A stretch of 64,000 bases of DNA from Neophaeotheca triangularis. Taxonomy: Eukaryota. Below are positions 11,840 through 17,863 of the stretch, piece by piece (positions within the stretch are counted from its first letter, which is position 1; each line of letters starts with the position of its first letter). Under the pieces are notes generated by a model that was not told the DNA's origin, searched no databases, and saw nothing but the letters and a program-made list of their open reading frames with translations. The stretch spans positions 248,001 to 312,000 of the forward strand of contig BAAIJX010000015.1 of NCBI GenBank assembly GCA_054600435.1, given 5' to 3'. Both the position numbers and the translations under genes were made by a program.

Positions 11840-12522
11840 TTACGCGGCACCAGCAACGGCAGCAACGACACCGATCAGACCGGCCAAGTAGCCGGCCGCA
11901 AGACCCTGGGCACCGCCCTCGGAAGCCTCGGGCTCCTCGAGATCGTCAGACTCCTCGGCGTCGGCGGCGGCGGCGGTTTCGCTGGCAGCGGCGTCGCAGT
12001 GCCAGTGGTCGCCGTGGGGCTCGCAGCCTACGGACTCGGTGGGAGAAGGGGCGATGGAGCCGGAGCCGGTGATGGCGGCATGGGAGAAGGTGTCGGTGGT
12101 GGTGGCGGCGGCGGAAGCGGTGGCGGGAGCATCGCAGTGCCAGTGGTCGCCGTGGGCTTCGCAGCCGACGGACTCGGTGGGGCTGGGCTCGATGGAGCCG
12201 GTGCCGGCGGCGTGGTCGTGGTCGTCGTGGTCGTCGTCCTCTTCGTCGGCGACGGCGGCGGCTGTGGTGGTAATGACGGTGTCGGAGACGGTGGCGGTCA
12301 CGGAGACGGCCTCGGTGCGGGGACCCTCGCAGTGCCTTTGGGGGAAGTGGGGTGTTAGTAGTGTTCTTTCATCTTGCTGTGGGTTGTGTTTGGGCTGAGA
12401 GCATACCAGTGGTCATCGTGAGGCTCACATCCGACCGACTCGGTGGGGCTGGGCTCGAGGTCCTGAGCAACGGCAGCACGCAGAGCGGCGAGCGCGCAGA
12501 CAATCTGGAAAGCGGTTCTCAT
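11840..12522 (-). CDS. Secreted, predicted GPI-anchored histidine-triad repeat protein (203 aa), putative zinc binder
   Basis: Signal peptide MRTAFQIVCALAALRAAVA. Intron 12336-12406 (GTATGC..CTAAC..AAG). Three repeats PSPTESVGCE(P/A)H(D/G)DHWHC, a DDDHDDHDH tract, S/T-rich linkers and a hydrophobic C-terminus after small residues (SEGGAQ). Confidence 0.85.
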
Positions 12523-12788
12523 TGTGGTTGTGGTTGTGGTTGTTGGTGAAACGAAGAGTATGTGGTTGGCTTGGTCGAAAAGAGGGATTGAGTTGTGGAT
12601 GATGAAAGGGATGAAAGACGGGCAGGTCAGAGGTACGTATTAAAGGTATGAGGAGTTATTATAGGGCACTAGGCAGGCAAGAAGAATGTCCAAGACAAGG
12701 TGTAGGGTCCCAACTGCAGAGTTTTCTAGCCTAATAACCTGGCATACTTGGAATACTGCTACTACTTGGTACTATTGTAAATGGTTGG

Positions 12789-13004
12789 CCATCAAGGTTG
12801 GAGAAGATGCTCGTTGACGTTCGCCTAGAACGAGCAGGGCAGGTCTGGGCGCCGCCCTTATGCTCCTTCGCTAACAAAATTACCTGACTCTCGATCCGGG
12901 TGTGTTGAAGAGCTACCTTGTCTTACCTTGGATCTAGTACATGTAAGGTAGACTGCCCCTTCTTGGCAATACCTACGGGACGCTTTCTTGGTACCCATCA
13001 AGGT
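12789..13004. promoter_or_regulatory. Two ZafA/Zap1-type CCATCAAGGT elements plus PacC GCCARG sites upstream of the His-triad gene
   Basis: CCATCAAGGT at 12789-12798 and 12995-13004. GCCARG or its complement at 12738, 12962, 13009, 13021 and 13058. Confidence 0.65.
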
Positions 13005-14065
13005 GCTGCTTGGCCACGTGCTTGGCCTACTCAACTTGAACTCCAGGTCCACTCCAGGCCAAGTCCAGTACTTAAGTCTTTAGTACCTATTCATCCAAAA
13101 CCGGTATTACCGGCCTCTGCCCATATTAACCGCCCCGATATCTAGCCATCGGGTCGAATTCACGTGGGATTCCATGCCACCAACGACCGACAAGGGAAGT
13201 ACAACCGCTGCAGTGTCATGGAAGGATGGAGCCCTTCCGTGCAGCCACGAGGTTTAATGTTACTATGCCTTCCGAGCATCGGGCTCACCGAACCATGCCC
13301 ATGCCCATGCCCATGGCCACATGGCTGAACGACTCCCGTGTTGCCAGTAGTAGTGCCACCCACCGCATCTGATCGCCCGGCACATGTTGCACAAGCGACT
13401 CCCAACTCATCATGCACCTCGGTCGTCGGGCGTGTGCTGCAATCTAGGTACAGTACTGCCAGTATTGACTCGCTGCCGCGGCTGGTGGAGGACTTGACCT
13501 GATTAGGTAGGTACGGTTGACGTGACGTGAGTCGCTTCTTACCACCATCGAGGAACTTCTGGTAGGTACCAAATCACATCTATCTGCGAGTCGGAATGTT
13601 TTGTCGAATCGAGTCGTCATAGTATGAACGAAACACGCTTCAGGATTCGAAGGAACGATGGGATCTGGTCGAAGGGATCGAAACAGTCTTGAAGATGTTT
13701 GTGAAGAGTGTTAAGGGACGATTTGTGGAATCATCTTGTCGATTGAATCGACGTTTATACCGTTTGTAACACTTCATTACCTAAATCGACAATGGCAATT
13801 GAGTAAAGGGCTTGAGAGAATTTCGAACATGGCAGCAAAAACGTCAAGCGACAATTGTTGTATCGAAGTCATCAATTAAATCGACGTCTATGGTACTTTT
13901 TTCGAAATTACTTCCATAATAAATTTCCGCTCATACACATCGTAATGACCGTTGCTTTTGACCTCCCCTCTCTTTCTCTCTCTCTCCAGCCCAACATCCT
14001 CCAATCGAAGCGTAAGTGTTTCAGTGCATTGCATCATGCGTCTATCGCGAGGGAGCCATCAACGT

Positions 14066-15093: not shown

Positions 15094-15584
15094 GATGTTG
15101 TCGTCGGAGGTGCTGTAGAATCGAGTTCAAGTTGTTTGAAGGAAGGGGGTGAGACTGAGACTGAGACTGGACTGGAATAATACAATGATGCTCTTTGATA
15201 TGCTCTTGGTCGCCGTCAATTGACTTCTTATATACATGAGTACCGACTGGGTCGGCATGGTGCTTTTTCCTCTGCCCAGAAGCCCAGCCAAGCTAGGGTG
15301 GTTAGTGATGAAGAGACTGCAAAGCACCGTGGTGGGCAAAAGCAGCCACAATGTCCATCAACGGGGATCTACTCGATAAGTCAGCGAGTCGAGAAGTATT
15401 ATTACATAGGAGGGAGGAGGTAGTGTAGAGTGTAGAATGTTAGTAAGTTGGTAAAGTAGGTTTGTAGGTTGCAGGACATGACCACATGTCGTCGAATCGG
15501 GCCCGAGTCATGCACCGGCAGGGAGGCTTGTTACTATAGTACTAGGTTGTTGGGCGGAGACGGGAAGCAAAGTCTTGGTAAAAC

Positions 15585-16130
15585 ACCTTGATGGAACGTC
15601 CAATTCCCACTCCCTACCCAGGTCCCCCCCGAGCCCCCCAAACTGGCCAGTCTCGCCGGCCTTTATTCTGCAATCTCGACTTGGCTGATGCGCTACACGG
15701 CATTGGCATAGTCTTGGTATTGCAATCTATTGCCCTGCGGGAATTATTCTTCTCTCGAATCTCATTCTCGGTGGGTACTAGTACACTACTACCTACTCCC
15801 TTAGCAGAGACGATCCTTCGGCTGCAGGTGACAAAGACGGTATAGTATCAAGAACACCCTTCACACCTCCTTCACACTTCTACTAGCCTACTACTCTCTT
15901 TTCATTTCGAGAGCGAAGAATTTTTGCTTCAGACCCCACGCCCCATCTGCTTCTCTTCTCTTCTCGTTGAACATCCCACCAGAAAAAAAGAAAGCTAACC
16001 AGACCAAGGCCCGTGACTACATACCTTTAGTACTAGGCAAACCTGTTAGGGCTCTGCTTTTGCAAGTGCCATTATTGTTGTACACTTTGTACCCGGACAC
16101 TTCTTCTTTGCCACGACAAACCTTGATGGT
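15585..16130. promoter_or_regulatory. Bidirectional PRA1/zrfC promoter with ZafA-type ACCTTGATGG elements and PacC sites
   Basis: ACCTTGATGGA at 15585-15595 and ACCTTGATGGT at 16120-16130. GCCAAG/CTTGGC at 15287, 15680 and 16181. TATATAA on the minus strand at 15228-15234. Confidence 0.7.
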
Positions 16131-16243
16131 ATCCTAGCCCTATAATATCAGAGCCTTTCCTTCCCTTTAAAAACGACAGACTTGGCTCCCACGCAACCAC
16201 CGCAACGACACACCACACTCGACTCTTCCATCGCCCACGCAAG

Positions 16244-17863
16244 ATGCGTTTCTCTTCTCTACACGCCGTGCTCGCTCTGTCTGCCCTCAACACCGTTGGC
16301 GCCTTGCAAACCGTCGCACGCCCACACGATGCCCGGGCGCCGGAGATCACTCCTCTAGCTAGGAGACAGGACGCCGACGAAGAAGCACCAACCATCACCT
16401 CAGTCTCGGACTGCCACAACCATGGCGATGAACAGTGAGTCGGGCTTACATGATGCTCTCAATCTGCCGGAAGACCAACTCAGTAAATGCAGATGGTGCA
16501 TGGCCGGCACTGCCGAATACGAAATGGCCACAACGGCCTCGGACGGCGAGACTCTACCGACATCATACAGCGACTGCCACACTCACGGCAGCGACACGTA
16601 CTGTGTCGATGATGACGGTGGCGATGTTCAAGTCCTGGACGCCGGGGCTGCCGAGTCGTCGGAAGAGGAGGAAGATGGCGAAGAAGGCGACTGCCATTTC
16701 CATGCCGGTGTCGAGTAAGCTGCCCTCGCCATCGAGATGTTGGCTGCACATGTAACTAACAGCTCGTAGACACTGCGTTGGCGGCGCAAACACCTGCGAA
16801 ACCTCCGACCGAGAGTACAATGTCGGCCTGCGTATCGGCCTCATCTTCGTCGTGTTGGTGACCAGTGGTCTAGGTGCTTTCGCGCCCATCTTGATGGCCA
16901 GGTACCCTGTTTTCCCTCGCACCAACGCCGTGCTCCTGGTACTCAAGCAATTCGGTACCGGTGTTATCCTTTCGACTGCGTTTGTCCATGTGAGTAGTTC
17001 ACAACTAGATGGATAGAAATGCAGCCGCAGCTAATAATTTCTAGCTCTACACACACGCACAGTTGATGTTCAGCAACGAATGCTTGGGAGCGCTTGAGTA
17101 TGAAGCAACGACCTCCGCCATTGTCATGGCAGGTATCTTCATCTCGGCACTCATCGAATACATCGGCTTCCGCATTGCCAACCGTCGCGCCACCAACAAC
17201 GTTTCTCCTGTCTCCTCCAACGAAAAGGACGAAGCTCCAGGAGACCCAATCAGCGGCGCGAAAGACACTACCGGAGTATCTATCATGGAGGCCGGAATCT
17301 TGTTCCACTCGCTTCGTAAGTTGCAGGATTCTGTGAAAATGAATAGCAAGGAATTACAGTCTAGCTGACCTCGACACGTAGTGATTGGTCTTACCCTTGT
17401 CGTTGCCGGCGACTCTTTTTTTAGGACGCTTTTCATCGTCATCGTCTTCCACCGTAGGTTTGCCCTTTCTTGACACAACAAAGACAGGCCACTGACGAGT
17501 TTCGTAGAATTTTTCGAAGGTCTAGCACTTGGAACCTGCATCGCCGCGCTGCCAACTACGCCGACTCTGCACAAGTTCTTCATGGCAGGTCTGTTCACCA
17601 TCATCACACCCATCGGAATGGCCATTGGCATTGGAGTCCTCAACCAATTCAACGGAAACGACCCGTCGACCATCATTGCCATCGGAACGCTCGATGCTTT
17701 CAGCGCTGGTATCCTTGTATGGGTTGGTCTTGTGGAGATGTTGGCCCACGACTGGTTCCATGGGGGCGTGCTCGCTACGGCCGGCTGGATCAAGACTATC
17801 ATTTGCGGCATCTCGCTGGTTTGCGGCATGATCTTGATGAGCGTCCTCGGTAAATGGGCCTGA
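16244..17863 (+). CDS. zrfC: ZIP-family zinc transporter with long His/Cys-rich extracellular N-terminus (ZrfC/Zrt1 type)
   Basis: Signal peptide; CHNHG, CHTHG and CHFHAGVEHC motifs; KQFGTGVILSTAFVH, EAGILFHSL, HQFFEG and SVLGKWA. Introns 16435-16492, 16715-16769, 16990-17044, 17316-17381 and 17454-17507. Confidence 0.93.

Follow-up and report, generated by a model that had tools for sequence, protein, structure and literature searches.

Introduction

Fungal zinc acquisition is a determinant of virulence and fitness, and has so far been explained by the secreted protein Pra1/Aspf2 and the transporter Zrt1/ZrfC. We analysed 64,000 nucleotides of the Dothideomycete Neophaeotheca triangularis (assembly GCA_054600435.1, contig BAAIJX010000015.1, positions 248,001 to 312,000; this whole 64-kb stretch is referred to as the window), in which a ZrfC-type ZIP transporter gene, a divergent PRA1/Aspf2 gene and, 3' of PRA1, a third gene lie together at 11840-17863. 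The surrounding DNA is of fungal nuclear type, with short GT..AG introns. Judged by its sequence, the third gene is an orthologue of gzbA (AFUA_8G02450) of Aspergillus fumigatus and a member of the His-triad_hairpin family (PF28209), and we favour a role for its product in zinc capture at the cell surface.

The closest described gene is gzbA itself, named by Vicentefranqueira et al. (2018) and classed by them as directly ZafA-regulated. According to that source (PMC6070888) it is annotated as a putative glycosylphosphatidylinositol (GPI) wall protein of "unknown function" and placed with the cell-wall biosynthesis genes (Table S6, CWB column); its microarray values were +6.66 (-Zn vs +Zn) and -32.3 (ΔzafA vs wild type), its reverse-transcription quantitative PCR values were 84.8±8.0-fold up without zinc and -275.5±32.2 in ΔzafA, and its zinc-response (ZR) motifs lie at -165 and -401. 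No further fungal paper on gzbA was found in the searched literature. An earlier note on this DNA had taken such a third component to be undescribed, a claim that fails because gzbA and PF28209 exist; the window gene adds a member to a family for which zinc regulation had already been documented. The context of the locus, the pairing of gzbA with zrfC, the hairpins in Pra1 tails and the argument from introns were not found in the searched literature, nor was the enrichment of zinc-response motifs upstream of 21 homologues. Regulation by zinc and ZafA has been measured in A. fumigatus only, and in N. triangularis the promoter motifs point to it.

The A. fumigatus protein shares with the window protein a predicted signal peptide, three PSPT-x-S-V-G-C-x-P-H-x-D-H-W-H-C repeats, an HD-rich linker and a hydrophobic tail, and in both genes ZR motifs of the CAAGGT type lie no more than 500 bp from the start codon. 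The settings differ, with A. fumigatus gzbA divergent from the ZafA-dependent membrane-transport gene AFUA_8G02460 whereas the window gene lies directly 3' of PRA1.

For Candida auris, a poster abstract (Chakraborty and Wilson, 2022; PMC9516197) describes a putative new zincophore to which an inverted duplication of the Zrt101 ectodomain gave rise, apparently recently, and reports that deletion mutants grow poorly in low zinc. Compared by description only, this zinc- and pH-regulated gene is similar in that it is small and divergent from a Zrt1/ZrfC-type transporter, with PRA1 elsewhere, is made from the extracellular zinc-binding module of that transporter and shows induction upon zinc restriction and at neutral pH. 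It differs in being a lineage-specific yeast event, whereas gzbA is found across Pezizomycotina classes and combines a derived H-x2-H-x-H loop with a GPI-like tail.

Both partners in the locus carry comparable features. The CHTHxxGxxHC tail of Pra1/Aspf2 resembles gzbA in having a Cys-bracketed His-rich loop on a flexible linker, but has 11 residues instead of 10, other His spacing and a single copy on a folded HRXXH domain, and its carrier protein is secreted, unlike the predicted anchored gzbA. The motifs that bind zinc near the N-terminus of ZrfC/Zrt1 (Amich et al., 2010, 2014, cited in PMC5812535) are, as in gzbA, repeated 10-residue C...C loops in an extracellular Ser/Thr-rich stretch, with the same intron position and phase. 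They are of the C-H-x-H type (His 2, 4) and lie within a transporter, whereas gzbA has His 4, 7 and 9 in a predicted anchored protein of its own.

Outside the fungi, the pneumococcal proteins PhtA/B/D/E (PF04270) hand zinc to AdcAII. These are surface proteins that, like gzbA, repeat H-x2-H-x-H (HGDH[YW]H), a likeness also reflected in the Pfam name His-triad_hairpin. They bind zinc and are zinc-regulated (AdcR), as cited in PMC3386192. Unlike gzbA, they are bacterial lipoproteins and their motif has no flanking Cys. Membership of Strep_his_triad (PF04270) was considered and rejected: the exon 2 product of the window gene (P0001, our query for protein searches and structure prediction) had no match, and for three of five homologues the E values were 0.25-0.69 (10-12 bits, far short of the cut-off of 27), from weak alignments that cover 7-8 residues, HGDHWH alone. 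The resemblance is an analogy at the level of function and motif, without membership.

A gzbA-Like Gene Beside PRA1 and zrfC

The open reading frame (ORF) from the ATG at 12522 reads MRTAFQ...GCEPHDDHW and, without splicing, would stop after 55 aa. A 71-nt intron (GTATGC...CTAAC...AAG) joins the two exons in frame (Table 1) to give a product of 203 aa with 13 His and 7 Cys. This protein contains three PSPTESVG-C-E-[PA]-H-[DG]-D-H-W-H-C copies and matches the family repeat (A/G)PSPTES(V/I)G-C-x-[PA]-H-x-D-H-[WY]-H-C, which occurs in 1-4 copies. The linkers are rich in Ala, Thr and Ser, and DEEDDDHDDHDH lies within one of them. The C-terminal tail, GLAAGYLAGLIGVVAAVAGAA, has a mean Kyte-Doolittle value of 2.29 over its last 15 residues and is compatible with a GPI signal on a hydropathy heuristic; AlphaFold2 (AF2) places a terminal helix there and some homologues are labelled "GPI anchored protein" in their sources. 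The earlier note had described a secreted protein with a GPI-like tail and three Cys-bracketed HxxHxH repeats, and the gene model agrees with that description at the same positions.

The neighbouring genes had been named as PRA1 and zrfC, and both names hold. The PRA1 product has the HRXXH domain (E 5.1e-101), a signal peptide and the C-terminal CHTHxxGxxHC of the Pra1/Aspf2 proteins, here CHTHADGVVHC, and terminates in SCHTHADGVVHCV. Its exon 1 product (308 aa) is 100% identical to a deposited 324-aa N. triangularis protein with the same last 13 residues. A Pfam scan did not detect the HRXXH domain in the gzbA-like protein. Divergent from PRA1 across a 1150-bp intergenic region, zrfC encodes a ZIP domain (last exon, E 5.5e-16; HQFFEG present in the product) and a long ectodomain with the three loops CHNHGDEQWC, CHTHGSDTYC and CHFHAGVEHC, the features of a ZrfC/Zrt1-type transporter. 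Exon 2 of the gzbA-like gene had no identical deposited match in the protein search, the closest being 55% identical, in contrast to the 100% of the Pra1 query, and the gene may be absent from the deposited N. triangularis annotation or modelled otherwise there.

The search with P0001 returned 359 proteins at E<=1e-3 (best 1e-56), and the precomputed label PF28209, named His-triad_hairpin (Pfam 38.1; Atlas), stood on 120/120 among the matches listed. Against a Pfam release without PF28209, P0001 matched no family at E<=1, and a Pfam scan of 24 single repeat units gave weak matches only (DUF2284 in 3/24, best E 0.027, and one other). An exhaustive profile search of 1.84 billion representatives recovered no more than 297 clusters at E<=1e-3. 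From their genera we take the named family matches all to be Pezizomycotina; Orbilia, Geopyxis and Truncatella were checked in the taxonomy, and the family reaches Orbiliomycetes and Pezizomycetes. The 90% cluster of one match (P0105) includes A. fumigatus AFUA_8G02450 (Q4WBI9, "GPI anchored protein"), which aligned to the exon 2 product at 2e-25 (BLASTP) and has the same plan of three repeats, HD linker and hydrophobic tail. AFUA_6G00620 (a "putative GPI-anchored protein", also ZafA-dependent) was dropped as the candidate orthologue when the cluster look-up gave AFUA_8G02450.

Conservation was examined in 155 stored loop-bearing proteins with 402 complete repeat units. Three loops were present in 75 proteins, two in 46, four in 17 and one in 17. 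Both Cys and the first two His were found in 402/402 units, the third His in 386 and the Trp in 376, with variable linkers, and 265 units read CEPHGDHWHC. Among the 155 proteins, a hydropathy heuristic marks a hydrophobic tail in 144 and a signal-like start in 120, and HD/HE runs occur in 64. The first-loop intron occupies the same place, after Trp-8, in 18 of 21 representative homologous loci, in agreement with the window gene.

Two side observations concern the family as deposited. Products of A. fumigatus gzbA in the P0105 cluster are deposited at 180, 197, 216, 224 and 232 aa, and the 180-, 216- and 232-aa sequences agree in their C-terminal part, their differences being confined to the N-terminal start. 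Longer loop arrays occur on fungal contigs, with nine loops at ~105-nt spacing in four loci (L055, L056, L059, L060), nine in L068, six to seven in L052 and L053 and six in L037; the loop subtype of these arrays is C-E-[AP]-H-G-D-H-W-H-C-P-P-G-V-P, and Atlas includes a 459-aa "DUF8375/His-triad hairpin" cluster.

Zinc-Response Motifs in the Promoters

The 10-mer CCATCAAGGT has exactly four matches in 64 kb, two in the gzbA-like promoter and two in the PRA1/zrfC promoter, as the earlier note had reported, and none elsewhere. The expectation is 0.11 per 64 kb, and 0/100 shuffles reached four, with none above one. Flanking sequence differs among the four, which indicates separate sites and no duplicated segment. 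The 10-mer includes CAAGGT, the essential core of the 15-bp A. fumigatus ZafA ZR motif DYYVYCARGGTVYYY (PMC6070888). Five CAAGGT cores fall in the 309 bp at 12696-13004 of the gzbA-like promoter, where ~0.23 would be expected by Poisson arithmetic. ZR-like sites at 58797 and 59808 were set aside as they lie inside a long ORF. The hexamer GCCARG, which we take to be a PacC site, also clusters in the gzbA-like promoter, with five copies, and occurs three times in the PRA1/zrfC intergenic region, at about the background rate. By motif count, the cluster would fit alkaline-pH control.

The same core was enriched upstream of homologues. In the 1 kb 5' of the start codon at 21 distinct homologous loci, CAAGGT occurred 52 times (2.5 per kb) compared to 0.60 per kb elsewhere in the same loci, about fourfold, and random 1-kb windows averaged 0.93. 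It ranked first among 180 hexamers of the same composition (median 9), with the overlapping TCAAGG as runner-up. At least one CAAGGT was present in 20 of the 21 upstream regions, loci without a ZIP gene were enriched as well (19 in 10 kb), and many sites read GCC[AG]TCAAGGT[GT]Y, which equals the window 10-mer and fits the ZafA consensus. This enrichment gives independent support for the family as part of a conserved zinc regulon.

Linkage to zrfC in Other Genomes

Linkage was judged within the fetched flanks of 79 metagenomic fungal loci, which form 47 distinct groups. A ZrfC-type ZIP gene lay within ~3 kb of the gzbA homologue in 18 loci (12 groups), divergently in 17 of them (11 groups) and in tandem in one. 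These neighbouring ZIPs carry two to six N-terminal CHxH motifs, which identifies them as ZrfC-type, and in the divergent pairs the first CHxH motif is 1.1-1.6 kb from the gzbA start. A PRA1 homologue was detected in 0/79 loci (tblastn, E<=1e-3, fetched flanks). The gzbA proteins of the ZIP-linked loci are closest (42-60% identity) to Sordariomycetes, mostly Sordariales (Thermothelomyces, Corynascus, Podospora), and in one locus (L014) the exon plan of the homologue equals that of the window gene. In Truncatella angustata, a gzbA homologue (TruAng_004230) and a Pra1 homologue (TruAng_004231) have consecutive tags on one contig. The zinc link proposed in the earlier note is borne out by these homologues beside zrfC, by the ZafA core in the 10-mer and by the zinc-starvation-induced, ZafA-dependent orthologue.

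Another gene was seen next to gzbA. A CARME methyltransferase (PF07942, carnosine/histidine N-methyltransferase; E to 4.7e-42) adjoins gzbA in six distinct loci without a ZIP gene. It is mostly divergent from gzbA, so that a CAAGGT-bearing promoter would be common to both. Neither "carnosine" nor "N2227" occurs in the supplementary ZafA tables of PMC6070888.

The Hairpin in Pra1 Tails

The gzbA hairpin was also found on Pra1 itself. Among 120 listed Pra1 homologues, 77 end in CHxHxxGxxHC, 13 in a C-x-P-H-[DG]-D-H-W-H-C-P-P-G-V-P hairpin (P0176, P0182, P0183, P0190, P0201, P0203, P0210, P0211, P0222, P0223, P0228, P0231, P0237) and 30 in neither, several of the latter being truncated models. 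A hairpin-type tail reads …C-T-P-H-D-D-H-W-H-C-P-P-G-V-P-E-P-T-S-P-P-S, and one of the 13 has the PSPTASIGC...CEGP form. As the two types stand in one position, they appear interchangeable there. The CHTH tail was the strongest Zn(II) site among Aspf2 peptides according to PMC9780748, and the tail position has been proposed as zinc-foraging "arms" (PMC12663325). One truncated model (P0180) breaks off directly behind …HDDHW and thereby hints at an intron in the equivalent place.

These tails bear on whether gzbA stays at the surface. In an alternative that we regard as unlikely, the GPI signal would route the protein to the surface, from which it would be released to scavenge at a distance like Pra1 and return to ZrfC, and in fungi where gzbA stands in for PRA1 next to zrfC, its product would serve as the chief zincophore. 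The hairpin on secreted Pra1 homologues is in keeping with this, as are the gzbA-zrfC pairs in 12/47 groups with no PRA1 in the fetched flanks and the Zrt101-derived putative zincophore of C. auris, deletion of which perturbs low-zinc growth (PMC9516197). The hydrophobic tail of 144/155 family proteins argues instead for a conserved anchoring step, and secretome evidence of release was not found. Long Ser/Thr linkers are typical of wall-spanning stalks and also count against a shed protein.

Apparent Kinship With the ZrfC Ectodomain

The gzbA and ZrfC motifs are both 10-residue Cys-bracketed loops with C1, H4, G5 (often D6) and C10 in common. An hhalign comparison of 24 gzbA units with 33 ZrfC units aligned them in register over 16 columns (P 1.9e-4, probability 47%). 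The genes agree at the intron as well: loop 1 of gzbA is interrupted after base 2 of codon 8 (TG|GT), and loops 1 and 3 of the window zrfC are interrupted at the identical position and phase. Among 41 ZrfC CHxH instances (window and 10 loci), GT stands at the codon-8 base in 38 and the loop is visibly interrupted in 28. Taken with the divergent arrangement, the intron agreement is consistent with gzbA having arisen through an inverted duplication of the 5' part of zrfC, a scenario that we consider plausible.

A wider history can be put forward tentatively and with more doubt than confidence. In it, gzbA would be an ancient, Pezizomycotina-wide third zincophore component, born by inverted duplication of the first exon(s) of zrfC (signal peptide, zinc loop, phase-2 intron), which later gained a GPI anchor and became a surface receptor and relay feeding ZrfC. 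It would have replaced PRA1 as the divergent partner in some (Sordariales-like) lineages, its hairpin would have been grafted onto the Pra1 C-terminus in Pleosporales-type fungi, and the C. auris gene would be a recent replay.

Proposed Role and Alternatives

We think it rather probable that gzbA is a zinc-starvation-induced, surface-anchored protein that captures zinc and relays it to ZrfC. Zinc binding, surface localisation and relay are what we infer from the observed gene model, family, promoter motifs, synteny and sharing of modules. The anatomy would be a signal peptide, three short disulfide-bracketed beta-hairpins, each offering an acidic residue besides its three His (H-x2-H-x-H), linkers rich in Ser, Thr and Ala that include an acidic, His-rich one, and a GPI signal. 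Under zinc starvation, a ZafA/Zap1-type activator would bind the CAAGGT sites of gzbA, PRA1 and zrfC and induce the three jointly. The gzbA protein would then be tethered at the plasma membrane or wall, where each hairpin may bind about one Zn2+; it would hold zinc at the surface and hand it on to ZrfC, whose ectodomain carries related loops, and may take zinc from Pra1. The hairpin is probably an evolutionary relative of that ectodomain module.

Several points weigh against this relay role. Data on zinc binding, localisation or knockouts of family members were not found in the searched literature. The AF2 model of P0001 (24 sequences) shows the loops as beta-hairpins (E58-61/E64-67 and E104-107/E110-113) with the Cys pair at the base and a helix in the tail, but it is weak, with a mean predicted local distance difference test score of 58.1. 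Foldseek against the PDB returned 0 matches with this model, hence none to the solved Pht histidine-triad domain, VIA-align gave two rows (Z 2.1), and profile searches of PDB sequences with two alignments gave one irrelevant match (E 0.74) and none, respectively; as the model is poor, nothing follows on fold from the structure searches. The signal for homology between the gzbA and ZrfC motifs is modest. The 10-mers of the gzbA-like promoter fit the 15-bp A. fumigatus consensus in part, with two mismatches at 12994-13008 and a worse fit at the 12789 site. According to PMC9780748, sites of Aspf2 peptides that consist of His only bound Ni(II) in preference to Zn(II) in vitro, so that the motif by itself does not settle the metal specificity. 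The Cys pair of the hairpin may be a disulfide or may supply thiolates to the metal, as it does in the reduced tail peptide of Aspf2.

Linkage also falls short in part. The earlier note had made linkage of homologues to PRA1 or ZIP genes a test of its reading, and this held for the ZIP-linked groups and for Truncatella. It did not hold in A. fumigatus, where gzbA lies apart from zrfC (AFUA_4G09560) and aspf2 (AFUA_4G09580), in the Sordariomycetes Fusarium zealandicum, Paramyrothecium foliicola and Sodiomyces alcalophilus, which carry the two families on different contigs, or among the 22 groups whose flanks reach 4 kb or more, in the 10 that had no ZIP or CARME neighbour.

This scattered linkage would suit the reading that the window gene is a chance neighbour, an ordinary GPI wall protein or adhesin with a coincidentally shared 10-mer, and CAAGGT alone is indeed common (47 in the window vs 32.7 expected, with 3/100 shuffles reaching 47). 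We give that reading very little chance and judge it largely refuted already by the four copies of CCATCAAGGT in two promoters only, by the promoter enrichment across 21 independent loci, by the experimental ZafA dependence of the orthologue and by the adjacency to zrfC in 12 distinct groups.

Loose linkage to zrfC in several genomes would also be expected of a protein that buffers stray metal (Cu, Ni, Zn) or remodels the wall under zinc starvation and delivers nothing to ZrfC. The Ni(II) preference noted above, the low-specificity HD/HE runs in 64/155 members and the filing of A. fumigatus gzbA under cell-wall biosynthesis (PMC6070888) would agree with such a role. We find it improbable all the same, as the A. 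fumigatus orthologue is induced by zinc lack and not by excess, the gene is recurrently paired with a high-affinity alkaline zinc importer, conservation is strict for the Trp, both Cys and all three His, and the hairpin module is common to zincophore tails. Surface capture and relay to ZrfC is the role we favour.

Features of the Locus and Its Surroundings

Table 1. Positions of the features discussed, given in window coordinates except for the CARME genes, which are given in the coordinates of their metagenomic loci.
Feature	Position	Strand	Basis or remark
gzbA-like coding sequence including stop, 203 aa	11840..12522	minus	Gene model and homologues
gzbA-like exon 1	12522..12407	minus	
gzbA-like intron	12406..12336	minus	
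gzbA-like exon 2	12335..11843	minus	
gzbA-like stop codon	11842..11840	minus	
Signal-peptide-like N-terminus, ~20 aa (...AAVAQ/DLEPSP)	12463..12522	minus	Hydrophobic-window heuristic
Hairpin 1, CEPHDDHW/HC (aa 32)	12329..12429	minus	Split by 71-nt phase-2 intron within W codon
Hairpin 2, CEAHGDHWHC (aa 97), PSPTESVG before	12134..12163	minus	Translation, alignment
Hairpin 3, CEPHGDHWHC (aa 143), PSPTESVG before	11996..12025	minus	Translation, alignment
GPI-signal-like hydrophobic C-terminal tail	11843..11902	minus	Hydropathy; AF2 helix 148-163 of P0001
CCATCAAGGT, gzbA-like promoter	12789-12798, 12995-13004	plus	271-477 bp from ATG
gzbA-like promoter cluster, CCATCAAGGT x2 and CAAGGT cores at 12696 (+), 12915 (-), 12925 (-)	12696..13004		174-477 bp 5' of ATG
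Five GCCARG (PacC-consensus-like) hexamers, gzbA-like promoter	12738..13063		325 bp; 102 in 64 kb
CCATCAAGGT, PRA1/zrfC intergenic region	15585, 16120	minus	
Sole perfect window match to A. fumigatus ZafA consensus DYYVYCARGGTVYYY	15581..15595	minus	Includes 10-mer
Second 10-mer site of PRA1/zrfC promoter	16116..16130	minus	2 mismatches to 15-mer consensus
PRA1/Aspf2 zincophore gene, 324 aa, one intron	15093..14066	minus	Pfam HRXXH (PF13933), E 5.1e-101
PRA1 exon 1	14161-15093	minus	
PRA1 intron	14108-14160	minus	
PRA1 exon 2	14066-14107	minus	
ZrfC-type ZIP transporter gene, 443 aa, six exons	16244..17863	plus	Zip domain, Cys/His loops; five GT..AG introns
zrfC exons	16244-16434, 16493-16714, 16770-16989, 17045-17315, 17382-17453, 17508-17863	plus	
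ZrfC N-terminal ectodomain, three C-H-x-H-x5-C loops	16412..16775	plus	Loops 1 and 3 split by phase-2 introns in codon 8
CARME gene, L003	7936-8955	minus	
CARME gene, L005	7279-8364	minus	
CARME gene, L040	7673-9244	minus	
CARME gene, L011	1319-2324	minus	
CARME gene, L006	11584-12599	plus	
CARME gene, L068	5-568	plus	

Beyond zrfC, an MFS transporter gene occupies 18548-20081 (PF07690, E 1.5e-21 for 18966-20078), and immediately 5' of it, at 18502-18516, is ATCTCCAAGGTGTTT, a ZR-like site that departs from the consensus at one position. A ZafA-dependent membrane-transport gene, AFUA_8G02460, likewise accompanies gzbA in A. fumigatus. On the far side of the gzbA-like gene, a 478-aa ORF at 9556-10992 (plus strand) had no Pfam match at E<=1e-5.

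Significance

Since 2018, gzbA has been on record among strongly ZafA-induced genes "of unknown function". The pairing with zrfC, the hairpin in Pra1 tails, the kinship at the level of introns and the zinc motifs across classes together give it a concrete and testable role at the surface. This suggests that fungi have repeatedly reused the transporter ectodomain to bind zinc in free or anchored form. Should this be so, a third player would have to enter both the models of zinc uptake and the reading of pra1/aspf2 knockouts, above all in fungi where zrfC has no PRA1 neighbour.

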